From Cetorhinus maximus (taxonomy: Eukaryota): a DNA stretch of 64,000 bases. This document shows positions 35,297-53,500 of the stretch, one piece after another (the stretch's first letter is position 1; every line of letters begins with the position of its first letter). A model generated the notes under the pieces. The model did not search any database, was not told where the DNA came from, and saw only the letters and a list, made by a program, of their open reading frames with translations. The stretch spans positions 46,500,001 to 46,564,000 of the forward strand of contig NC_135884.1 in NCBI RefSeq assembly GCF_964194155.1. The letters run 5' to 3'. A program made the position numbers and the translations under genes.

Positions 35297-38200
35297 AAAC
35301 TAAATAGAAAATGATTATGATCCAATAATAATTTTTAAAGAAGTGAAGAGCATTTTCTAGAAAAGAAGAGAGTGGTGGTGAATGGTTGTTTACAGAGAGT
35401 AGTGGTGAACAGTTAACAGAGATTAGGGGTGAATGGTCATTTACTGAGAGTGATGGTGAACAGTTGTTTACAGGAATTAGTGGTGAAAAGTCTATGGAGA
35501 GCAGTGGTGAATGGTTGTCTACAGAGTGTAATGGTGAATGGTTGTTTACAGAGAGTAGTGGTGAACAGTTATCTACAGAGTGTAGTGGTGAAAGGTTTAC
35601 GGAATGTAGTGGTGAATGGTTGTTCACAGGGAGTAGTGGTCAACAGTTTAAAGAGAGTAGTGGTGAATGGTTGTTTGCAGTGAGTAGTCGTGAATGGTTG
35701 TTTACAGGGAGCACTGGTGAACAGTTGTTTACAGAGAGTAGTGGTGAATATTTATTTACAGAGAGTAGTGCTGAACAGTTGTTTACAGAGAGCACTGGTG
35801 AACAATTGTTTACAGAGAGTAGTGGTGAACAGTTTACAGAAAGTAGTGGTGAACAGCTGTGTACAGAAAGTAGTGGTGAACAGCAGTTTACGGAGAGTAG
35901 CAGTTGTGTACAGAAATTAGTGCTGAACGGCAGTTTACAAAGAGAAGTGGCAAATGGGTCTTTACAGAGAGTACTGGTGAACAGCTGTTTACAGAGAGTT
36001 GTGGTGAACAGTTGTTTACAGAGAGTAGTGCTGAACAATTGTTTACAGAGAGTAGTGGTGAACAGTTGTTTAAAAATAGTGGTGGATAGTTGCTTACAGA
36101 AAATAGTGGTGAATGGGTGTTTACAGAGGTTAGTGGGAAGACTTTACAGAAAGTAGTTGTGAACAGTTGTTCACAGAGAGTACTGGTGAGTGTTTGTTTA
36201 CAGAGAATAATGGTGAATGGTTGTTGACTGAGAGTAGAGGTAAGAAGTTGTTTACAGATTGTAGTGGTAAAAAGCAGTTTACAATGTGTAATGTTGAACA
36301 GCTGTTTAAAGAGAGTAGTGGAGAATAGTAGTTTATAGAGAGTAGTGGTGAATACTTGTTTACAGAGATTAGTGATGAACGGTTGCTTACAGAGAGTAGT
36401 GGTGAACATTTGTTTGCAGAGAGTAGTTGTGAATGGTCGTTTAAAGAGAGTAGTGGTGAACAGCAGTTTACAGAGAGTAGTGGGGATTGGTTGTTTACGG
36501 TGAATGGTGGTGAACGGTTGTTTACAGAGAGTATTGATGAACAGTTGTTTACAGACTGTAGTGCTGAATGGTTGTTTACAGACAGTAGTGGTGAAGAGTC
36601 ATTTACAGAGATTTGTGATGAACATTTGTTTACAGAGAGTAGTGGTGAATGGTCATCTACAGAGAGTAGTGGTGAATGGTTGTTTACAGAGAGTAGTGGT
36701 GAACAGTTTACAAAGTGTAGTGGTGAATGGTTGTTTACAGAGAGTAGTGGTGAATAGTTTACAAAGAGTAGTGGTGAATGGTTGTTTGCAGAGAGTAATG
36801 GTGAACAGTTCTTTATACAGAATACTGGTGAACGGTGGATAACAGAAACTTCTGAGCAGTTGTTTAAACAGAGTAGTGGTGAAAGTTTTTTACAGAGAGT
36901 ACTTCTCAGCGGTTGTTTACACAGAGTAGTGCCGAACAGTTGTTTACATGGAGTAGTGGTGAACAGTGGTTCACAGAGACTTGTGAACAGATGTTTATAT
37001 AGAGTAGTAGTGAATGGTTGTTCACAGAGAGTAGTGCCAAACGGTTGTTTACAGAGAGTAATGGTGAATGGTTGTTTACAGAGAGTAGTGGTGAACAATT
37101 GATTACAGAGAGAAGTGGTAAGTACTTTACAGAGTAGCAGTGACCAGTTTACAGAGAGTAGTGTGCACAGTTGTTCACAGAGAGTACGCGTGAATGGTTG
37201 TTTACAGAGAGTATTGGTGAACGGTTGCTGACAGAGAGTAGTGGTGAACGGTTGCTGACAGAGTAGTGGTGAACGGTTGCTGACAGAGAGTAGTGGTGAA
37301 CGGTTGCTGACAGAGAGTAGTGGTGAATGGTTATTTTACACAGAGTAGTGGTGAATGTTTTGTTACAGAGAGTATGGTTGAACGTTTGTTTACAAACAGT
37401 AGTGTTGAACAGTTGTTTACAGAGAGGAGTGGTAAACAGTTGTTTACAGAGAGTAGTGGCAAATGATTGTTTACAGAGAGTAGTGATGAACAGTTGTTTA
37501 CATGGAGTTGTGGAGAAGAGTTGTTAACAGAGAGTAGTGGAGAACGGTTGTTTACAGAAAGTAGTGGTAAATGGCTGTTTACAGAGAGAAGTGGTGATCA
37601 GTTGTTTACAGATAGTAATCATGAATGCTTTTCTACAGAGAGTAACGGTGAACGGTTGTTTAGAGAGAGTATTCGTGAGCAGTTATTTACAGAAAGTAGT
37701 GGTGAACTGCTGTTCACAGAGTGTAGTGGTGATCAGTTGTTTACAGAGAGTAGTGTTGAACAACTGTTTACGGAGAGAAGCAGTAAATGGTTGTTTACGG
37801 AGAGTAGTGGTGTACAGTTGCTTACAGATAGTAGTGGTGGACATTTCATTATAGAGAGTAGTGGTTTATGTTTTTTACAGAGGTTAGTGGTGAATGGATG
37901 TTTGCAGAGGGCAGTAGTGAATGATCATCTACACAGAGTAGTGTTGAACAGTTGTTTACATAGAGTAATGGTGAACGGTTACTTACAGAGAGTAGTGCTG
38001 AACGGGTGCACTCAGAGAATAGTGGTGAACAGTTGTTACAGAGAGTAGTGCTGAACAGTTGTTTGCAGAAATAAGTGGTGAACATTGGTTTACAGAGAAT
38101 AGTGGTGAATGGTTGTTTACAGAGTGTAGTGATCAACAGTTGTTTACAGAGAGTAGTGGTGAACATTTGTTTACAGAGTTTAGTGATGAACGGCTCTTTA

Positions 38201-41200
38201 CAGACAGTAGTGGTGAACAATTTTTTTCAGGGAGTTGTGTTGAACAGTTGCTTTCAGAGAGTAGTAGCAAATGGTTCTTTACATAGAGTAGGTGAACAGT
38301 TGTTTACAGAAATGCTGGTGAACATTTGTTTACAGAGAGTAGTGGTGAACGGCACTTGATAGGGTGCAGTGTTGAATGGTGGTTTACAGAGACTGGTGGT
38401 GAAAAGTTGTTTACAGTGAGTATCGGGTAACAGTTGTTTACAGAGAGTAGTGGTGAGCAGTTGCTTACAGAGAATAGTGCTGAATGGGTTCTTTCAGAGA
38501 ATGGTGGCGAGCAATTGTTACAGAGTGTAGTGCTGAATGGTTGTTTACAGAGAGTAGTGCTGAACATTTGTTTGCAGAGAGTAGTGCTGAACGGTTGTTT
38601 GCAGAGAGTAGTGCTGAATACTTGTTTACAGAGAGTAGTGCTGAACGGTTGTTTACAGAGAGTAGTGCTGAATGGTTGTTTACAGAGAGTAGTGCTGAAC
38701 ATTTGTTTGCAGAGAGTAGTGCTGAACGGTTGTTTACAGAGAGTAGTGCTGAACGGTTGTTTACAGAGAGTAGTGCTGAATGGTTGTTTACAGAGAGTAG
38801 TGCTGAATGGTTGTTTACAGAGAGTAGTGCTGAATGGTTGTTTACAGAGAGTAGTGCTGAATGGTTGTTTGCAGAGAGTAGTGCTGAACGGTTGTTTGCA
38901 GAGAGTAGTGCTGAATACTTGTTTACAGAGAGTAGTGCTGAATGGTTGTTTACAGAGAGTAGTGCTGAATGGTTGTTTACAGAGAGTAGTGCTGAATGGT
39001 TGTTTGCAGAGAGTAGTGCTGAACGGTTGTTTACAGAGAGTAGTGCTGAATGGTTGTTTACAGAGAGTAGTGCTGAACGGTTGTTTGCAGGGAATAGTAT
39101 AGAACAGCTGTTTAGAGAAAGTAGTAGTGAATTGTAGTTTACAGTAAGTAGTGGTGATTGATTGTTTACAGAAAGAAGTGGCGGTCAGTTGTTTACAGAG
39201 AGTAGTCATGAACGGTTGTTTACAGAATATTCGTGAACAGCTCTTTACAGAGAGTAGTGGTGAATGGTTATTTACAGAGAGTCGTGCTGAATGGTTGTTT
39301 GCAGAGAGTAGTGCTGAATGGTTGTTTACAGAGAGTAGTGCTGAACGGTTGTTTACAGAGAGTAGTGCTGAACGGTTGTTTACAGAGAGTAGTGCTGAAC
39401 GGTTGTTTGTAGAGAGTAGTGCTGAATGGTTGTTTACAGAGAGTACTGCTGAATATTTGTTACAGAGAGTAGTGCTGAATGGTTGTTTGCAGAGAGTAGT
39501 GCTGAATGGTTGTTTGCAGAGAGTAGTGCTGAACGGTTGTTTACAGAGAGTAGTGCTGAACATTTGTTTACAGAGAGTAGTGCTGAACGGTTGTTTGCAG
39601 AGAGTAGTGCTGAATGGTTGTTTACAGAGAGTAGTGCTGAACATTTGTTTACAGAGAGTAGTGCTGAATGGTTGTTTACAGAGAGTAGTGCTGAATGGTT
39701 GTTTGCAGAGTGTAGTGCTGAACGGTTGTTTACAGAGAGTAGTGCTGAACGGTTGTTTACAGAGAGTAGTGCTGAATGGTTGTTTGCAGAGAGTAGTGCT
39801 GAACGGTTGTTTACAGAGAGTAGTGCTGAATGGTTGTTTACAGAGAGTAGTGCTGAACGGTTGTTTACAGAGAGTAGTGCTGAATGGTTGTTTGCAGAGA
39901 GTAGTGCTGAACGGTTGTTTACAGAGAGTAGTGCTGAATGGTTGTTTACAGAGAGTAGTGCTGAACGGTTGTTTACAGAGAGTAGTGCTGAATGGTTGTT
40001 TGCAGAGAGTAGTGCTGAACGGTTGTTTACAGAGAGTACTGCTGAATGGTTGTTTACAGAGAGTAGTGTTGAACGGTTGTTTACAGAGAGTAGTGCTGAA
40101 TGGTTGTTTACAGAGAGTAGTGCTGAATGGTTGTTTGCAGAGTGTAGTGCTGAACGGTTGTTTACAGAGAGTAGTGCTGAACGGTTGTTTACAGAGAGTA
40201 GTGCTGAATGGTTGTTTGCAGAGAGTAGTGCTGAACGGTTGTTTACAGAGAGTAGTGCTGAATGGTTGTTTACAGAGAGTAGTGCTGAACGGTTGTTTAC
40301 AGAGAGTAGTGCTGAATGGTTGTTTGCAGAGAGTAGTGCTGAACGGTTGTTTACAGAGAGTAGTGCTGAATGGTTGTTTACAGAGAGTAGTGTTGAACGG
40401 TTGTTTACAGAGAGTAGTGCTGAATGGTTGTTTGCAGAGAGTAGTGCTGAACGGTTGTTTGCAGAGAGTAGTGCTGAACGGTTGTTTACAGAGAGTAGTG
40501 CTGAATGGTTGTTTATAGAGAGTAGTGCTGAACGGTTATTTATAGAGAGTAGTGCTGAATGGTTGTTTGCAGAGTGTAGTGCTGAATGGTTGTTTACAGA
40601 GAGTAGTGCTGAACATTTGTTTACAGAGAGTAGTGCTGAACGATGGTTTACAGAGAGTAGTGCTGAACGATGGTTTACAGAGAGTAGTGCTGAACGATGG
40701 TTTACAGAGAGTAGTGCTGAACGATGGTTTACAGAGAGTAGTGGTGAACAGTTTTCTACAGAGCGTCGTGGTGAACAATTTACAAATAGTAGTGTTGAAC
40801 AGTTGTTTACAGACAGTAGTGGTGAATGGCTGTCTACACAGAGTAGTGATGAATAGTTGTTCACAGAGGGCAGTGGTGAACAGTTGTTTACAGAGAGTAA
40901 TTTTGAACACCTGTTTACAGAGAGTAGTGCTGAACGGTTGTTTACAGAGAGTAGTGCTGAATGGTTGTTTGCAGAGAGTAGTGCTGAACGGTTGTTTACA
41001 GAGAGTAGTGCTGAATGGTTGTTTACAGAGAGTAGTGCTGAACGGTTGTTTACAGAGAGTAGTGCTGAACGGTTGTTTGTAGAGAGTAGTGCTGAATGGT
41101 TGTTTACAGAGAGTACTGCTGAATATTTGTTACAGAGAGTAGTGCTGAATGGTTGTTTGCAGAGAGTAGTGCTGAATGGTTGTTTGCAGAGAGTAGTGCT

Positions 41201-42582
41201 GAACGGTTGTTTACAGAGAGTAGTGCTGAACATTTGTTTACAGAGAGTAGTGCTGAACGGTTGTTTGCAGAGAGTAGTGCTGAATGGTTGTTTACAGAGA
41301 GTAGTGCTGAACATTTGTTTACAGAGAGTAGTGCTGAATGGTTGTTTACAGAGAGTAGTGCTGAATGGTTGTTTACAGAGAGTAGTGCTGAACATTTGTT
41401 TACAGAGAGTAGTGCTGAACGGTTGTTTACAGAGAGTAGTGCTGAACGGTTGTTTACAGAGAGTAGTGCTGAATGGTTGTTTACAGAGAGTAGTGCTGAA
41501 CGGTTGTTTACAGAGAGTAGTGCTGAATGGTTGTTTGCAGAGAGTAGTGCTGAACGGTTGTTTACAGAGAGTAGTGCTGAATGGTTGTTTACAGAGAGTA
41601 GTGTTGAACGGTTGTTTACAGAGAGTAGTGCTGAATGGTTGTTTACAGAGAGTAGTGCTGAATGGTTGTTTACAGAGAGTAGTGCTGAATGGTTGTTTGC
41701 AGAGAGTAGTGCTGAACGGTTGTTTACAGAGAGTAGTGCTGAATGGTTGTTTACAGAGAGTAGTGTTGAACGGTTGTTTACAGAGAGTAGTGCTGAATGG
41801 TTGTTTGCAGAGAGTAGTGCTGAACGGTTGTTTGCAGAGAGTAGTGCTGAACGGTTGTTTACAGAGAGTAGTGCTGAAAGATTGTTTATAGAGAGTAGTG
41901 CTGAACGGTTATTTATAGAGAGTAGTGCTGAATGGTTGTTTGCAGAGTGTAGTGCTGAATGGTTGTTTACAGAGAGTAGTGCTGAACGATTGTTTACAGA
42001 GAGTAGTGCTGAACGGTTGTTTACAGAGAGTAGTGCTGAACATTTGTTTACAGAGAGTAGTGCTGAACGATGGTTTACAGAGAGTAGTGCTGAACGATGG
42101 TTTACAGAGAGTAGTGCTGAACGATGGTTTACAGAGAGTAGTGCTGAACGATGGTTTACAGAGAGTAGTGGTGAACAGTTTTCTACAGAGCGTCGTGGTG
42201 AACAATTTACAAATAGTAGTGTTGAACAGTTGTTTACAGACAGTAGTGGTGAATGGCTGTCTACACAGAGTAGTGATGAATAGTTGTTCACAGAGGGCAG
42301 TGGTGAACAGTTGTTTACAGAGAGTAATTTTGAACACCTGTTTACAGAGAGTAGTGGTGAATGGTTGTTTGCAGGGAGTAGTGGTGAATGGTTGTCTACA
42401 CAGAGTAGTGCTGAACAGTTGTTTAGATAGAGTAATGGCGAACAGCTGTTTGCAGAGACTAGTGGTCAATGGCTGTTTACAGAGAGTGGTGGTGAACAGA
42501 TGTTACAGAGAGTAGTGATGAACAGTTGTTTACAGAGAATAGCGGTGACCAGTTGTTTACAGGGAGTAGTGGTGAACGTTTG

Positions 42583-43612
42583 AAACAAAAACAGAAAATG
42601 CTGGGAAAACTCAGCAGGTCTGACAGCATCTGTGGAGAGATGAAACCAAAGTTAACGTTTCGAGTCCATATGACCCTCTTCAGAGCTGAAGAGAAGCGGA
42701 AATGTGATGAAATTATACTGTTTAAGGGGGTGGGGCAGATGGAGCTGGACAGAAGGCCAGTGATAGGTGGGGTCAAAGGAGAGATTGCCAAAGATGTCAT
42801 GAACTAAAGGACAAAGGGATTGTTAATGGTAGTGCTTAGTGCAAAAAAATAAGGTGCTAATAGTGGAGTAAAGATAAGAAAGTCAAATGTGATTATAGCA
42901 GAGCAAGGATAGCATTGTGTGAAAGAACAACATGGAACAAGTGACAGATGTCCCTGTAGGGGATGGGGTTGGGGGAGGGGATGGTGGCGGGAGAAAAAAA
43001 AGGGTAGAAAATGGTATAAAATTATGGATAAATGAATAAAAATAATAAAAAATATAACAAGTGGGTAAAAAATAACAATAAATATAGAAGAAAGGGGTGA
43101 AAAAAAGGGGTGAGGATGGAGGAGAGAGTTCATGGTCTGTAGTTGTTGAACTCAATGTTAAGTCCAGAAGGCTGTAAGGTACCTAATCAGAAGCTGAGGT
43201 GCTGTTCCTCCAGTTTTTTTTTATTCATTCATGGGATGTGGGCATCACTGGCTAGGCCAGCATTTATTGCCCATCCCTAATTGCCCTTGTTCAGGGGGCA
43301 TTTAAGAGTGAATTGTTGTGGGACTGGAATCACATGTAGGCCAGACCAGGGAAGGACAGCAGATTTCCTTCCCTAAAGGGCATACAATCAACAATGGTTT
43401 CACAGTCATCATCAGACTTTTAATTCCAGATTTTTACTGAATTCAAATTCCACCATCTGCCATGTTGGGATTCCAACCTTGATCCCCAAGGACATTACCC
43501 TGGGGCGCTAGATTACTAGTCCAGCAACAATACCACTACGCCATCGCTTCCCACAGGTTTCATTGGGCTTCACTGGAACATTGCAACAGGCCAAGTACGG
43601 ACATTGGGCATG
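42583..43612 (-). mobile_element. Penelope-like element 3' fragment inserted in the satellite
   Basis: Reverse complement of the PLE tail and the end of the endonuclease region (homologous to 11760-12520), split by a SINE. Confidence 0.8.
43212..43555 (-). mobile_element. HE1-type SINE nested in the Penelope fragment
   Basis: Reverse complement of the 18819-19160 family, with an A-rich tail. Confidence 0.85.
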
Positions 43613-45025
43613 AGTAGTGGTGAATGGTTGTTTACAGAGAGTAGTAATGAATAGTTTTTTACAGACAGTAGTGGTGAACAATTGTTTACGGGACGTCGTG
43701 GTGAATGGTTGTGTACATAGATTAGTGGTGAACTGTTGTTTACGGAGAGTAGAGGTGAACAGTTGTTTACAGAGAGCAGTGGGGACTGGTTGTGTGTGGA
43801 GTGTCGTGCTGAACAGTTTACAGGGAGTAGTATAGAACAGCTGTTTAGATAAAGTAGTAGTGAATTGTAGTTTACAGTAAGTAGTGGTGATTGATTGTTT
43901 ACAGAAAGTAGTGGCAGTCAGTTGTTTACAGAGTGTAGTCATGAATGGTTGTTTACAGAATATTCGTGAACAGCTCTTTACAGAGAGTAGTGGTGAATGG
44001 TTATTTACAGAGATTACTGGTGAACCATTGTTTAGAGAGTACTGGTGAACCATTGTTTATAGAGAGGAGTGGTGAACAGTTTTCTAGAAATCGTCGCGGT
44101 GAATGGCTTACAGATAGTAGTGTTGAACAGTTGTGTACAGAGAGCAGCGATGAACAGCTGTTCATATAGAGTAGTGGTGAACGGTTGTTTACAGAGAGTA
44201 GGGATGAACAGTTTACAGAGATTATTGATGAACGGTCCTCACAGAGAGTCACGGAGAACAGTTGTTTACAGAAAGTCATGGTGAACAGTTGTTTACAGAG
44301 AGTAGTTGTGAATAGTTGTTTTCAGATTGTTGTGGTGAACGTTGCTTTACAGAGAGTAGTGATGAAAGTTTTTCTACAGAGATTAGTGGTAAACAGTTGT
44401 CCACAGAGAGTAGTGGTGAATGCTTGTTTATAGAGAGCAATGGTGGACAGTTGTCTACACAGAGTTTATGCTGAACGGTTGTTTACATGGCGAAATGGTG
44501 AACACTTGTTTACAGAGAGTAGTGGCGAACGGTTGTTTACAGAGAATAGTGGTGAACGGTTACTCACAGAGAGTAGTGGTGAATTGTTGTTTACAGAGAG
44601 TAGTGGTGAACAGATGTTTACAGAGAGTAGTGGTGATCAGTTGTTTACAGAGGGTAGTTGTGAATGGTTGTTGACATAAATTAGTGGTGAAAGGTTGATT
44701 TCAGAGAATAGCGGTGAACAGTTATTTAGAGAGGGAAATGCTGAAATGTTGTTTATAAAGAGTAGTGCTGAATGATTGTTTATGTCAATGTATAAATAAT
44801 CACAGTGCATGGCAATCACCTTGTTAAAGACAATTGCTAGTTAAACAGGTGATGGGCATTGATTTATTCCATCTAAATAAAATAAAAAGATACAGCTGCA
44901 ACATTTCGGGTGGAAGCTACTTGGAAGTCAGTAGCACTGAGGAGTTGTCTTGAAAATAAACCAGCTTGAACCAAAAGGCCAGCCTGGATTAATTCTTCCA
45001 CCTCAACCTCTTATTGTGACTAACA

Positions 45026-45040
45026 TGGTAGCAGAGGATG
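45026..45040 (+). promoter_or_regulatory. Primer-binding site complementary to the 3' end of initiator tRNA-Met
   Basis: TGGTAGCAGAGGATG lies immediately after the 5' LTR. Confidence 0.9.
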
Positions 45041-46945
45041 AACTTTAAGCTTTGCTGATTGATTGCTGTACATGAAGCTTTTTGTCTCAATCCTCTGAGG
45101 GAAAAGAAGTGTACTGTTGCTGACAATTTAAGTTATGGAATGGTGAAAGGATGGTGCAAAATTGCAGCTTTGACTATCCACCAATTCTTTATGACTCTGA
45201 ACCTTATCAGCAATGGAAGGCTGAAGTTGAAATGTGGACCTGGGTTACTTCCATATCCCAGAAGAAGCAAGATATGGCTTTGGTGTTATCATTACCAGCC
45301 AAAAATAAGATAAGGAGCAAAGTATTTTCAGAGTGGAAAGTGGATGATTTGGATTGTGAAGAGATATTGAACCTACTGTTACAATTTTTGAATATGTTTT
45401 ACAAAAAGGATGAGTTATTGGAAGTGTATGAAGCTTGGATGATCTTTGATAGATTTAGGAATTCAGATGATCAGTCCATGGAAAAATATATCATGGATTT
45501 TGATAAATGGTACTGGAGACTACAGTGATTTGAACTTAAAATTCTGGAATCAGTAAAGGCATTTAAATTACTGGGCTGTTCTCACATTTCTCACGTTGAT
45601 AGTCTTTTAGTACTAACAGGGGTTCAATTCTGGGGGAAAGGACCTCTCCTAGATCAAATGGCTGCTGCCCTGAAGAAACATCTGGGGAAACAGTCGTTCC
45701 CTGCCACTTTTTTAGCAAATGCAAACAACTATGCTGTAAAACGAAGGATAGAGGATTCGATGGTGGCTGAATTTTGAGGTTGACCAAATATTAGACGAAG
45801 ATTCCAATGCAAAGATGGGGTTAATGACAAGAGGTCTCAAAATGGTCCTAACCCTAGCCAGTTTGAGAGTCGGGACAAAAAGCACGTCTGGGATGGTGAA
45901 CGTAGGCGTTTAAACCCAAAAAATGCACGGGGAATGGTTAATCGGTGTTTTCGGTCTGATTCCCAGTACCATTACGCAATGAACTGCCCACAGGGAAGGA
46001 ATCGCATTTTTGAAATGACCCACGAGACGGATTCATCTGAATCTGAAAGTGATCATGGTGACTGTCATGATGGAATTGTATTGATCACTGAGAGTTTGAA
46101 TCCGGTGATGAGTGTCTTGATGGTAGATTCCTTCAACTGTGCAGCTCTGCACAGTGGTTGCACTTCTGCGGCGTGCGGCATGGACTGGCTTGACTGCTAT
46201 CTGGAGCCTCTCAATGAGGCAAACTGGCAGAAGGTCAAGGAGTATGAAAGCTCTTCCTGCTTCAGGTTCAGAGATGACAATACATTAACATCCTGCAAAT
46301 GGGTGGTCCTCCCTTGTAAGATAGCAGTGTATCAGTACTGATGTGGTTTCTAGTGAGATACCGCCATTGTTGAGTTGAGCTGCGATGAAGAAGGCTCAGA
46401 TGACGCTAGATATGAAGAATGATAGAGCAGTCGTGTTTGGGAAAAATGTAGATCTCTATTTTACTCGGTCAGGCCATTACTGCTTGCCACTAAGGAAGCC
46501 AGAGATTTCTCATCAAAAAGTTCATGGAGTTTTGTTAACTGCTGAAAATAAGAATTTGGTGGACAAAAAGAAGATCATTTGGAAATTGCATGACAGTTTG
46601 CACATCCAGCACTACAGAAACTGAAGACTCTACTTCAAGATCCGGGAGTGGTCGATAAAGGATATGATGATCTTATTGAACAAATCACTGCTCAGTGTGA
46701 TATTTGCCTTAAATATCACAAGACACCACCACGTCCTGTTATGTATGAGTTTGCCACTAGCCAGGGAGTTTAACGATGCAGTGGCAATGGACTTGAAAGG
46801 CTGGGATAAGGAGAGAGGTAATTTTATACTACACTTTATAGATATGGCAACAAGATTTAGCCTATCTGCTGTGATACATAGTAAAGACAAAAGGACCATT
46901 GTCGATAAGGTCATGGAGAAATGGGTAGGAACGGGCTTAGGAACT

Positions 46946-47381
46946 TGAGTTCGAGTGGAATGCCTGAGGTGACGGCTGCGGTGAAGGGCGGTACATCCTA
47001 ATGTGCAAGGCGTCTAAACAGTCACCGACTAAAGTCACCAAGAAGCCGCCTAAGAAGCGGAGAAAATCTCGCAAGCAGAGCTATTCCAGTTACAAGTACA
47101 GGGTACTGACCCAGGTCCACCCTTCCTCCAGGATCTCGTCCAAAGCCATGAATGTTATGAATTCCTTTGTTGTCGACATTTTTGAGCGCAGCGCCTCTGA
47201 GGCTTCGCACATCATTCACTACAACAAACGCCACACCATCTCGGCCAGGGAGAACCTGAGCGCCGTCCGCCTCATGCTGCCAGGGGAACTGGCCAAACAT
47301 GCCATCTCCAAAGGTACCAAAGTGGTCACCAAATACACCAACTCCGTTTAGGTAGATCATTCTAAAGATTATATAAAAAAA
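46946..47381 (+). pseudogene. H2B: Variant histone H2B retrocopy (ATG at 46960, early stop and frameshift at ~46999, core to TAG 47351) inserted in the Copia integrase
   Basis: [13 protein letters not shown] followed by [11 protein letters not shown]...VHP..ISSKAM..MNSFV.DIFER.A.EAS...YNKR.TIS.RE...[22 protein letters not shown]. It interrupts the integrase between GTGLGT and FFTDNGGEF. Confidence 0.95.
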
Positions 47382-48716
47382 ACAACGTTCTTCACAGATA
47401 ACGGTGGGGAATTCGCCAATGAGGAATTTCGAGATATGTGCAAAAATTTAAACATCATGGTTACGCACACTGCAGCTGAGAGCCCATTTAGTAATGGTCT
47501 TTGTGAAAGAAACCATGCGGCAATAGACGACATGCTACATAAAATATTAGCTGATCAGCCAGATTGTAAATTGCAAATGGCACTAGCATGGGCAGTGCAC
47601 GCAAAGAACTCACTGCAAATGGCAAGGGGGTGCAGTCTTCACCAGTTGGTGTATGGAAGAAATCCAAAGTTGCCTTTGGTGTTGTCAGATGCTCCCCCTG
47701 CTCTAGAAGGGACTAGCATTAGCTCCACCTTTTTTGCTCATCTGAACACTTTGCATGCGGGTAGAAAAGCTTTCATTAAAGCTGAGGTTTCGGCAAAAAT
47801 TCGGCGGGCCCTACGGCACTGTATAAAATAAGGAGACATGGTATATTATAGAAGGGAAAACTGGAAAGAGTGGAAAGGACCTGGCAAGGTAATGGGGAGT
47901 GATGGAAAAGTAGTAATTGTGCAACACGGCAATCAAACTGTTAGGGTACATTTCTGGCGGCTAATTGGTACTGACTATACCTTTACAAGTTCTGAACAGG
48001 ACAGAACACAAGGAGACACCATGCACTTCACTTACACACACACTGGGTAGTTATGAGGAGCAGATGACAGCAGATACAGGGTTGACTGACTATGAACAAA
48101 GTAGCATTGAGGCACAGGATAATGCTATTCATCCAAAAGGTTGACTACCCAAAGTAGGAACAAAGGTAACATACATGCCAGAAGGGACCAGTTTGTGGAG
48201 GGATGCCACCATCATAGGGAGAGCAGGAAAGGCCACTGGTAAATACAAACATTGGCTAAATGTGCAGGATGAAGGACAAGAAGACAAGACCTATTGATTG
48301 GCAAACCGAGGTAAAGATATAGAAACCCAGAAAGTGTAGTATGAGTTCTGACAGTGGACCATAAAGTGGCCGTAACCCTAGAAAAAAATCACGGACTTGT
48401 GAACAGGGTTCTGCTCACATGGGAGGACGATCATATAGTAGCAGCCCAGAAAGGGAGAGGAATGTGAGTAGAGGCCATAGCTTAACAAGAATGAGGAGTA
48501 GAGAGCAAGCTAGCAATCTCAATAGAAGTAGAAGTCCTTATGACAGAGATTCTAGTAGTGGAATGTAAGCTGATAAAGGAAGACAAATGAAAAGGGTTAG
48601 ATAGTTGGAAGGAATTTGGGGTATATTCTGAAATACCTGACAGAGGACAGCCAGCTTTATCTCACAGATGGATCTGTACAGAAAAGGTACTCCCAGACAG
48701 CACATATAAGGCCAAA

Positions 48717-49856
48717 ATGAGATTAGTAGCCCGAGGCTTTGAAGAGAGACTAGGGGATCAGGATGTCAGAGTGGGCTCACCTATTGCGTGGAAAGTGAGT
48801 TTGAAGATTATTTTAGTTATTTTGGCATCCTATTCCTGGGAGTGCAAATCGATTGATGTAAAGGCTGCGTTTTTACAGGGAGAGAAGTTTCAAAGAGATG
48901 TTTTTTTTAAACTGCCCAAAGAAGCCGGGGATGTAGAAGGAAAGCTATGGAAATTGAATAAGTGTATTTATGGGTTGAATGATGCATCAAGAATATGGTA
49001 TTTTTCAGTGAGGTCTGTCCTGTTGAAAACAGGTTGCATTCAGTTAAAGGCAGACCCTGCGATGTTCTACTGGTACCATAAGGAGAAACTAGCTGGAATC
49101 TTTATAATGCATGTTGATGATATCCTGTGGGGAGGCTCTGTAGAATTTGAACAATGGGTAATTGAAAAGATAAAGAAGAAATTCAAGGTCAGAAGTCAGG
49201 CTTCAGAGGCCTTTAAGTACATAGGTTTAGACATTAAGCAGAGCAAGTTAGGAGTGGCATTGAATCAACAATCTTATCTAGAAAATGTTAATCATATCCC
49301 AATAACTCGGGTTAGATCCTCACAAAAAGAGGATCCTGCTACCAAGGAAGGAACGGAACAGTTGAGAAGTTTTATTGGGCAGTTAAACTGGTTATGCACT
49401 CAGGCTAGACCTGACGCTAGTTATGATGTGTTGGAGCTGAGTACTATGATAAAACATGCTACAGTTGAGCAAGTTCTGAGAGTAAATAAAACACTTAAAA
49501 AATTAAATTCTGAGAGATGTGTGCTCAAGTTTACAACCTTGGGTGATCCGGAAGATTTGAAGCTGGTCATTTTTAGTGATGCTTCACATGCCAATCTTCC
49601 AGATGGATACTCTAGCACAGCAGAGTTTATTATCATATTCTTGGTGGGAAAGAATGTTAAATGTTGCCCGCTGGCTTGGGAGACCAAGAAAATAAAAAGG
49701 GTAGTGAAAAGCACCTTTGCTGCTGAACCGCTTGCCTTGGTAGAAGCATTAGATATGGGGGTTTATTTCTCCAATATACTGACAGAAATATCATACAAGG
49801 GGCAATATGGGAAAAGTTTGCCCATAGGATGTTATGTTGATAACCAGTTTATTTGA
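48717..49856 (+). pseudogene. Copia reverse transcriptase / RNase H (largest surviving pol fragment)
   Basis: RLVARGFEE, IDVKAAFLQG, LNKCIYGLNDASRIWY, HVDD, FKYIGL, TQARPD, FSDAS and STFAAE motifs. Confidence 0.93.
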
Positions 49857-50535
49857 GACAACGTTCATTCTACGAAAAGTGTCACTGAGAAAGGCTTAAA
49901 ATAGACCTAGCCAGCATTAAAGAAATGTTAGAGAGAAGAGAGATCTCTAAGATACGATGGGTTGACACAATCCACCAACTATCAGACTGTTTTACGAAAA
50001 GAAGTACCTGCTCTATAAAAATGTATTGGAAGAGGGGTGTCTTATGTTATAATGATGCAATGAAAAAAGAACTTTTTTTTGTTTTATAATTGTGTATATA
50101 TATACGATATATATTTGGTAAAGGAAATACAGCAACTATATATGTGGAAATATGTGGCATTATTTCCTTCTGTTTGTTTTATAAAAAAAAGTTCTTTAAG
50201 TTTTTTCAAAGTTTTAATTTAAAAAGAAAAGAGGGGAATCTGTCAATATATAAATAATCACGCTGTATGGCAATCACTTTGTTAAAGATAATTGCTAGTT
50301 AAACAGATGATGGGCATTGATTTATCCCACCTAAATAGAATAAAAAGATACAGCTGAAACACTTTGTGTGGAAGCTACTTGGAAGTCAGTAGCACTGAGG
50401 AGTTGTCTTGAAAATAAACCAGCTTGAACCAAAAGACCAGCCTGGATTTATTATTCCACCACAATCTCTTATTGTAAATAGCAAGTTGTGGTGAACAGTT
50501 GTTTATGGTGAGCAGTGGTGAACAGTTGTTTGCAG

Positions 50536-53500
50536 AGACACAACTCACTAGGGATAGTGCACTGTAATATCAATCCCCATTGGTCCCCGCGATGCAACAA
50601 ATGTGAAAAGTTTGATCAAACCACCGGATCACTCCACTTCTACCAAATGTTTAATTCCGGTTAACAGAACACAAGCACAGGGTTTGTAAATTTAATAAGT
50701 AAATAACTGTTTATTGAACAAACTGTCATTAACCAGTGGCAAATGAAGGAAATATGAATTGCTAATTTCTAACTCTATAACCTAAACTCTACTCCTTCTT
50801 AAATCTCTATACACACACATCCAAACACATAAGGCACACAAGACATGGATTTTAAGGATGGGATAAAATAGTTCAATAGCACCAATTCCAGAGTACAGGA
50901 TTTGATGGGCTGATTTTGATTGATGTCTTCCAAATTCTTTTCGGTTCTTGTTGATGACACGAGGTGGTCTTCCAGCACTTTCAGTATTTAGTTCACTGGT
51001 TGAGCAATTGCCTTTCAATGTCTCTAACAGCGATTTTCCCCTTTGCCTCTTGACAGGGCTTTTTAGAGAGAGAGCAGGTTATAAAGATACGAAGGGAAAA
51101 AAAGCCAGATAGCTATTATTGTGGAATTACAGGAATCTTCCACACACATGAGCAAGAGGTTTTAGGTCTTGTTCCTTTCAGGCTAGGAGCTATTCTACTG
51201 CACTGCTTTCACACAAAACCTGGTTACCTGGTCAGGAGCCAATTAAGGCATTGTTGCCAGACAGCTCCCTTGGCCCAGGATTCCTTTCTGGCACCATCCT
51301 GTTTTTCATGGCACACTCTGTTCCAGGACTGCAACATTGTATATATCTCTCATCTTGTTATAGTGGACATGTCTTTCAAACTGCAGCCATTGTAATTTTA
51401 ATCCACAGTCCAACAGAAATAAAAGATATGTTCCTTACATGCCTCCAGCTTTATAAGAGATGAAACGCCATTTCAAAAAGTACGTTTCATCACAAGGTTT
51501 GTGACTCATGGACATCAAAACACAAGGTTTACTTTCATTCATCCTTCCTCCCCCTTATACAGTCTTGTATAATCTTCAGCATTTCTTATCCCTTTAACTT
51601 ATTTCAGTAGTTTACACCTGGGAGAATGCACCCGCGATCACATTATCTTTGCCGGCAATGTGAACAATCTTCACATTGAATGGTTTAACCAATAGAATCC
51701 ATCTAAACAGTCTCCCATTTCGAATTTTAAACTTTTCAATGAATGTCAGCAGATTAAAGTCAGTGTAGATTAGTGTTTCTTTGTTATCTTGTCAGACATA
51801 AACTTCAAAGCGTTGAAGAGACAACAACAATGCTAGAGTTTATTTTTCTACTGTAGAGTACTTCCTCTGATATTGATTTAGTTTCTTGGAAAAGCACCCC
51901 ACCAGCTTCTCTATCCCTAATTTATCATTGTGTAATAGGACTGCACCTACCCCCAAGGCACTAGCATCAATTCCCATTTTAAAAGGTTTGGTAAAGTCAG
52001 GGCAGCCAACACTGGTTCATTTATTAAGATTGCCTTCAACTTTTCAGAGGCTGCTTGGCAGTCCGCTGACCATACCACTTTTGCCTGTTTTCTTAACAAA
52101 TTGGTGAGAGGTACAGCTATTGTGCTGAAGTAAGGCACAATCTTCCGATAAAACCCGCACATTCCCAAAAATCTCATGACTTCTCATGCTACTTTACATG
52201 CTCCTGTGAGTCTTTCCAGAAACATGGTCACATAATCCAACATGGAGGATTTGACTTTCTGCTTCAGGAACTTTTCCCTAATCACTTTTAATGGACCTCT
52301 TATTTCATGACTATAGATCAATTTGAATGGACTAAATCCAGTAGATTCATTCAGAGAATCTCTGGTAGCAAATAGTAAGAAACCTAATCCTTTGTCCCAG
52401 TCCTTTGGTTATTCATGGCAATAGGTCTTAATCATGGTTTTGAGAGTTTGATGGTATCTTTCTAAAGCTCCCTGTGTCTGTGGGTGATAGGTGGTAGACT
52501 TTAGTTGTTTGATACCCAAATTGCTGATCATGTCCTGGAAAATTTTAGACATGAAGTTATAACCTTGATGAGATTGTATTTCAATTGGTAGGCCATAACG
52601 AGTGAAAAGCTTTTCCAGTACCACCTTAGCTATAATTGTCCTTAAAGGAATAGCTTCTGGAAATTGTTGTCATATCCATGATTGTACGGGTATACTGATG
52701 TCCTGCTTTTGTTTTACATAATGGTCCTACACAATCTACTAATACGCGACTGAATGGTTCATCAAAAATTGGTATGGTATTAAAGGTGCTGGTTTGATTA
52801 CATGTTGAGGTTTACCTGCTACCTGACAAAATGTATGGCATGTTTCACAAAATTGCACTATATCGTTATGAAGTTTTGGCCAGGTAAAATGCCTGTTTAT
52901 TGATGCTTGAAACCCATAGGGGTTTCATGTGCTACTCTCAATATCTCCTTACAATATTTGGGTGGTGCCACTATCTGATGAACAACCATCCATTCCTCAT
53001 ACACAGGTCTGTGGGGGTGTCTCCACTTCTTCATCAGAACTCTGTTTTTAAGGTAATAGCACTCCTGAACTCCTTTAGCTTCAGCTTCAGTGAGCTGACT
53101 GTGCTAACTTGTTTAACTCTGGATCTATTTTCTGAGCCTCAATTAATGAAGATATGCCAAACACTTCTTTTGAATTATCCTCATCCTTAAAGGTTTTGGC
53201 TACTCTAACATCTGCTCGTGGTATTATTTTGACCTCTGGAGATGGACTTGCTCTGGTCACCATACACGATGGAAAAATACCTGGAACCCGTTCTTGTGAC
53301 CGCTCTGTCTCTTTAGCCTCTCTCGGACTTTCCATAATTATGGGTGAAGTTATAAACTTCACTCCTGCCATATCATTCCCCAGGAGCAAATCAACTCCAT
53401 CCACGGGTAATTTCTTAATCACTCCTACAACCACCAATATAGACAACAAATCACACTTCAATTGCACTTTGTACAATGGAGTATACTTTCCACTTATCAC

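Follow-up and report, generated by a model that had tools for sequence, protein, structure and literature searches.

The 64,000-nucleotide stretch of the Cetorhinus maximus genome analysed here (the window) contains a Copia LTR retrotransposon whose integrase is interrupted, in the sense orientation and between both LTRs, by a frameshifted copy of a histone H2B gene. The element and its insert are described on the plus strand. The 5′ LTR (44783-45025) is identical to the 3′ LTR (50241-50483), which has a purine tract upstream, at 221 of 243 positions. The sequence immediately 3′ of the first LTR (45026-45036) is a candidate primer-binding site, and we take initiator tRNA-Met to be the tRNA that fits it. 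The integrase segment 5′ of the insert (46625-46944) matches 39 other places listed at 89-90% and has no Pfam match alone. The segment 3′ of the insert (47388-47831) matches rve (E = 2.4e-4, under the curated cut-off), and the reverse transcriptase region (48591-49856) matches RVT_2 (E = 1.3e-31). An LTR pair and an integrase lying 5′ of an RVT_2-type reverse transcriptase identify the host as Copia, and with both domain matches inside a two-LTR element the original prediction was right that the H2B copy is oriented as its host. A 27-bp G-rich tandem satellite surrounds the element (38000-44780 and 50490-50540), the long open frames in it being repeat artefacts. Just 3′ of Copia, on the minus strand, lie what are, from their motifs, presumably Gypsy-like integrase fragments (51870-53190).

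The insert had been placed at 46946-47381 but starts slightly earlier, at 46943-46945, depending on how the dinucleotide AC (46943-46944) is assigned, which is common to Copia and the H2B 5′ UTR. Alignment to another copy (L104) shows that the 5′ UTR (46945-46959) is of the old type described below and carries a 9-nt internal deletion; ACTTGAGTT at 46943-46951 matches old-type copies and the deletion follows it. This UTR begins a few bases 3′ of the full-length start of the family. The H2B-variant coding copy (46960-47351; Pfam Histone, E = 1.2e-13) is present as claimed, but it is a pseudogene, broken by a 5-nt insertion at 46999-47003 so that translation stops after 13 codons. The 3′ UTR (47352-47382, delimited by reference to the parent gene) contains TCTAAAGATT and an 8-A run. 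That run is indeed found (47375-47382), but it mirrors an A-rich stretch in the genomic 3′ UTR of the parent and is therefore not a poly(A) tail. Next comes CAACG (47383-47387), shared between the mRNA, at the foot of its stem-loop, and the Copia target, and a putative priming site.

By comparison with uninterrupted Copia copies, 5 target bases are missing, or 10 when the shared CAACG is assigned to the H2B copy, and three target bases are missing after CAACG. A loss of integrase bases had been foreseen, although it amounts to about two codons rather than one. At the insert site H2B is absent from 29 of 29 other Copia copies, 22 of which have the standard spacing; a genome search gave 862 first-look candidate places for the integrase segment 46625-46944. 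The window copy lacks a target-site duplication (TSD), as had been noticed from the sequence: the best score is 4, whereas shuffled flank pairs reach 8 in 3% of cases.

A stem-loop H2B gene and its retrocopies

The parent of the H2B copies is an intronless gene (L068/L099, G000:C22:2810844) with CCAAT-like boxes, a TATA box and an intact, CpG-rich ORF of 128 codons. In its 3′ UTR an A-rich stretch leads to AACAAC, directly followed by a histone stem-loop (Rfam RF00032, 34.9 bits against a cut-off of 34), and an intronless ORF with a 3′ stem-loop marks the gene as being of the replication-dependent type. It was thus correctly anticipated that the source was a stem-loop histone gene, that the 3′ junction lay at the foot of the stem-loop and that there was microhomology at both ends. 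The parent has the stem-loop as predicted and CAACG is shared, but the TTC..CACAGA that follows CAACG in the window is Copia's own sequence and not stem-loop. The parent protein is identical to P0010, a protein named from two lamniform sharks, and its closest relatives (83-88%) are elasmobranch, from other sharks and a sawfish. It is apparently an undescribed elasmobranch H2B variant, and its retrocopies would imply expression in the germline.

Copies on C24 and C32 were rejected as parent because they lack the stem-loop, those on C24 also being flanked by TSDs. A poly(A)-ending L1/Tx1-like element adjoining the parent was considered too, and no link between it and the H2B family was established. 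On C32 (L011, L016, L017, L022 and L097), four duplicated H2B-variant copies lacking the stem-loop belong to a histone cluster, where they and an H3 gene are arranged head-to-head, and the ORF is intact in two of these copies; this could be a retrocopy using a histone promoter. About 2.7 kb upstream of the parent (L098:7380-8110, G000:C22) there is also a TATA-led intronless ORF of ~218 codons, proline-rich at its start and lysine/arginine-rich at its end, with a histone-type stem-loop after it. Pfam gives no match for this ORF, which has the appearance of a divergent H1-like gene forming a pair with the H2B variant.

Three genome searches for the H2B family returned 2,203, 1,228 and 1,173 first-look candidates, of which 40 were scored per search. 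A family 21-mer has 183 exact matches in the genome, against 0 for the control, and is present in 28 of 62 sampled copies, which sets a floor of about 400 copies. The 84 independent copies that we read, after setting aside the parent, repeated matches and the segmental duplicates found on C24, C32 and C317, comprise 62 score-ranked ones (the window copy included) and a further 22 drawn from the first 30 matches to a pattern. None of the 84 includes the stem-loop, and their 3′ ends fall in the interval from TCTAAAGATT to the stem-loop's foot, at GATTAT(A) (47 copies), in the A run (27), at AATAAC (8) or at AACAACG (2). One gene has left hundreds of copies that are often full-length. Diagnostic columns, 17 in number, shift stepwise from old to young, and a tree of 76 near-full copies is ladder-shaped, leads to the present-day parent and has just 3 starred branches; together these results fit a single master gene copied over a long time. 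TSDs flank 35 of the 84 copies. In the ranked set, against a null of 3%, young-type copies have one in 24 of 39 cases and old-type copies in 5 of 23, leaving 18 of 23 old-type copies without one, and the window copy belongs to this old type, in which a missing TSD is usual. It is also the only one of the 84 in Copia coding sequence. As the other 83 of 84 lie outside the coding region of the window's Copia, the idea that Copia capture is a route for the spread of histone genes finds no support in this family.

Several members deserve separate mention. Five loci on C24 and C317 (L091-L095) represent one TSD-flanked H2B retrocopy multiplied at least fivefold, with its flanks, by segmental duplication, and four of the five retain an intact ORF. 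At L012/L073 (G000:C15:56238517) two H2B copies are arranged in tandem, head to tail, and within the following 1.4 kb there is what we take, from its translation, to be a ribosomal-protein-like processed copy. In the annotation of two lamniform sharks, many of the single-member 'H2B-like' proteins are probably retrocopies of this family, which would inflate histone gene counts.

Target sites shared with a Tx1 element and a SINE

The sequence upstream of 28 TSDs is biased (G at -7 in 17, T at -6 in 17, C at -4 in 21 and C at -1 in 19), giving G-T-n-C-a-y-C as the upstream target motif of the H2B family. Under a matrix from these 28 TSDs, built without the window copy, the empty Copia site, read at CC/AACG, falls among the highest-scoring 0.5% of positions in Copia, and none of the other 10 offsets scores better; the choice among offsets was post hoc, and the value is ~0.05 if all are counted. 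This offset is the start of the 3′ microhomology. A matrix from 16 SINE sites places the same site at a weaker 1.6%. RTE elements have a signature of their own, a T stretch one helical turn upstream, in the available account (PMC6007223); we did not adopt it, T being only modestly frequent at that position.

Individual copies illustrate how these sites are used. L007 ends at AACAACG like the window copy and sits at CCCACC/AACG without a TSD, in a non-LTR host that we take, from its motifs, to be an L1/Tx1-like endonuclease region. One TSD-flanked copy (L003) and one without a TSD (L192) occupy the same site of the same repeat. A Copia-LTR-like left flank occurs in 13 of the 84 copies, in 12 of the 13 in sense and mostly at the TATA box, and 9 of these 12 sense copies have no TSD. 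In L072 a TSD-flanked H2B copy lies in the 5′ LTR of a Copia element while the 3′ LTR is empty, so there H2B was inserted after Copia had integrated. A second H2B near L009 was considered as a possible copy in both LTRs and rejected, being inverted and 5′-truncated with a TSD of its own.

The TATA region of one Copia LTR family (L238-L257) is a hot spot for a Tx1 element, a SINE and H2B, sometimes stacked. Empty LTR sites were represented by 76 matches, nearly all of them empty LTRs, to a pattern that excludes G upstream. Among 20 LTR sites with altered upstream sequence we assigned, by eye, ~8 to the 3′ end of the Tx1 element, 4 to the SINE and 2 to H2B, and some insertions at these TATA sites are in tandem. 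The Tx1 element is poly(A)-less with a CTCAAAAGAGT-like end. Its reverse transcriptase matches RVT_1, and the assignment to Tx1 is by pairwise identity, Xenopus Tx1 ORF2 (149 kDa protein) being 57% identical over 94% of the query. The LTR TATA site is where 6 of 29 Tx1 copies end; another 12 end at a second site, which is also used by 8 of 30 SINE copies and by two H2B copies (L064 and L078). The SINE (L147-L176, L241, L246 and L248) is tRNA-like, ends in ACTCGAAAGAGTT, is often in tandem and has TSDs; a 27-mer from it has 3,394 exact matches, and its end and target sites are common with the Tx1 element.

The H2B message may resemble these elements at its 3′ end as well. ATTCTAAAGATT is the best match to Tx1 ends in the 480-nt H2B mRNA, and the ends of 15 of 32 TSD copies fall at -3 to +1 relative to it. 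Since a score as high is reached by 2,077 of 20,000 shuffled UTRs, and no fold is associated with the match, mimicry of the Tx1 end by the H2B UTR is suggestive and not significant.

Origin of the insert and comparison with known systems

We consider it very probable that the insert is a tailless retrocopy of the stem-loop H2B-variant gene, likely placed in an already integrated Copia element by target-primed reverse transcription, with a Tx1-clade LINE as the probable agent. In such a scheme the parent would be expressed in the germline, and the Tx1 endonuclease would nick the target at CACC/AACG, a site of its preferred kind. The freed target DNA end would pair with the single-stranded AACG of the mRNA just 5′ of the stem-loop and prime cDNA synthesis, which would extend nearly to the start of the mRNA. 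Joining of the second end downstream would create a TSD, or it might proceed through microhomology with a small loss; at the window copy the 5′ side would have been joined through the AC microhomology, at the cost of a few target bases. That Tx1 provided the enzyme is judged probable from shared target sites and hot spots, and the same argument has been used for SINEU and Tx1-Mar in the available text of Kojima 2015 (PMC4494074). Some observations sit less comfortably with target priming: the window copy has no TSD, a plain nick leaves the three bases missing after CAACG unexplained, and the sense orientation of 12 of 13 LTR-associated copies is what capture by an LTR element would also predict.

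Such a capture was the original prediction, in which the Copia reverse transcriptase copied a co-packaged H2B mRNA by way of two microhomology-guided template switches. The mechanism is documented in animals including zebrafish in the accessible part of Tan et al. 2016 (PMC5131818), and it would account for the sense orientation, the missing TSD, the 5-nt and 2-nt microhomologies, the two LTRs and the 12 sense LTR-associated copies, 9 of them without a TSD. Nor do the ages speak against it. Insert and Copia host are the same age within error, with 21 non-CpG differences in 344 for the insert (6.1%) and 86 in 1,634 for Copia (5.3%); between the LTRs there are 20 in 243, or about 4% in the age comparison. 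Equal ages do not show later insertion for the window copy and are compatible with capture during Copia replication. We nevertheless regard capture as improbable. The Copia site fits the target motif of the family, the same junction occurs in the non-LTR host of L007, and in L072, the sole testable two-LTR case, H2B occupies one LTR; together with TSDs in 35 of 84 copies, the last two points argue against Copia reverse transcription as the maker of the copy. Moreover, only 5-10 bases were lost, whereas the Drosophila cases in the available part of that publication replace part of the element (PMC5131818), and a copy or so in the interior of this Copia family is in any case expected by chance (0.4-2 copies, taking 400-2,200 copies in all and 862 x 4.8 kb in a genome of 3.99 Gb). 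No propagated chimera was found either. Other Copia copies with H2B at the identical position had been suggested as a sign of propagation, but the chimeric 3′ junction has a single match in the genome, the window itself, and of 2,203 candidates the 40 with the best scores include no other full-length match. A loose pattern for the 5′ chimera was uninformative (605 matches against 572 for the control).

Repair of a double-strand break in Copia from an RNA or cDNA template, with microhomology at both ends and no endonuclease nick, would explain the small deletions at or near both junctions and the lack of a TSD. It is nonetheless very unlikely, because the break would have to coincide with the family's target motif and the 3′ end lies inside the family's normal range. 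Least credible of all is an assembly artefact joining two repeats: both parts are high-copy, 27-bp satellite surrounds them and the 5′ junction is bridged by no contig listed (62-88% of each run read), but one short-read contig from run X1, possibly the source sample, runs across the 3′ junction (47355-47432) without a single difference, and the Copia halves meet no more than 10 bases out of register. Among the contigs listed for runs of other organisms (X5, X6, X8, X9 and X11) there was no junction of the window locus; these runs contained empty Copia sites and H2B copies with different flanks.

Returning to target-primed insertion, a broader reading may be put forward, which we hold only tentatively and think somewhat less probable than its negation. 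In mackerel sharks, a single stem-loop H2B variant specific to elasmobranchs may have played the part of a SINE master that codes for a protein, with a 3′ UTR (ATTCTAAAGATT) that mimics the terminal ACTC-AAAA-GAGT of a sequence-preferring Tx1 LINE. Over a long time this LINE would have made hundreds to thousands of copies of the mRNA, with Copia LTR TATA boxes among the sites; the copies would preserve successive stages of the gene as fossils and would include many intact ORFs that are annotated as histone genes.

The class of tailless retropseudogenes is already known. Our literature search, largely of open-access main text, found no shark report of tailless histone retrocopies and nothing in print on this host lineage, scale, full-length copying or Tx1 partnership; the histone table of Noll et al. 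and the supplements of a 2026 preprint on vertebrate retrocopies (10.64898/2026.06.26.734816) could include shark histone copies. With the present family, the range of tailless retroposition widens to include sharks and, probably, a LINE of the Tx1 clade, and a histone mRNA that lacks poly(A) is seen to have been copied in SINE-like numbers. The family is also a caution: an insert within an LTR element may be in sense, lack a TSD and show microhomology, and these features alone do not prove that the LTR element captured it.

The closest parallel is with the tailless retropseudogenes, which the available text of Noll et al. 2015 (PMC5322556) reports from therians and the anole lizard only, ties to L1 with a TT/WAAAAWW target, and illustrates with 51 histone-derived human cases that are 5′-truncated. 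As in that class, the shark copies have no added poly(A), an internal A-rich single-stranded 3′ end complementary to the target, and TSDs (PMC5322556). The window copy has no untemplated poly(A) and ends inside its source RNA, and CAACG falls within the 2-18 nt of complementarity between RNA end and target, with TSDs overlapping the tail in sister copies. It does not pass the strict published filter, which calls for a flanking TSD, and which 35 of 84 family members have, but it likely works in the same way. Neither the poly(A) tail nor the TT/AAAA target of a classical L1 processed pseudogene is present, and the argument that an insert with no TSD and no poly(A) is not the work of a LINE overlooks the tailless class (PMC5322556). 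Differences from the published examples, as far as the available text describes them, lie in the shark host, the hundreds of often full-length copies of one gene, the G-T-n-C-a-y-C motif upstream and the Tx1-clade partner in place of L1 (PMC5322556).

For crocodilian SINEU and Tx1-Mar, the accessible part of Kojima 2015 (PMC4494074) likewise names a mobilising Tx1 from target preference for another transposon, and two crocodilian Tx1 families prefer LTR retrotransposons. TSDs, truncations and unaltered sites all occur in both systems; however, SINEU is snRNA-derived, while in the shark a protein-coding histone mRNA is the passenger and the TATA region of Copia LTRs serves as the hot spot (PMC4494074). 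With the LTR-mediated retrocopies of Drosophila, in which an mRNA replaces part of the element in all cases in the available text and which can re-transpose (Tan et al. 2016, PMC5131818), the window copy shares its position between two LTRs and microsimilarity at both junctions (5 nt and 2 nt). It differs in that Copia is interrupted and not part-replaced (5-10 bases missing), in that there is a single chimera, and in that the sister copies are dispersed with TSDs (PMC5131818). Finally, vertebrate germline H2B variants are known to leave retrocopies, and some variants retain stem-loops, according to the available text of Raman et al. 2022 (PMC8857922). The retrocopied H2B.K and H2B.N described there have introns and poly(A) signals, in contrast to the intronless, stem-loop-bearing shark parent, a contrast of gene structure and not of orthology (PMC8857922).
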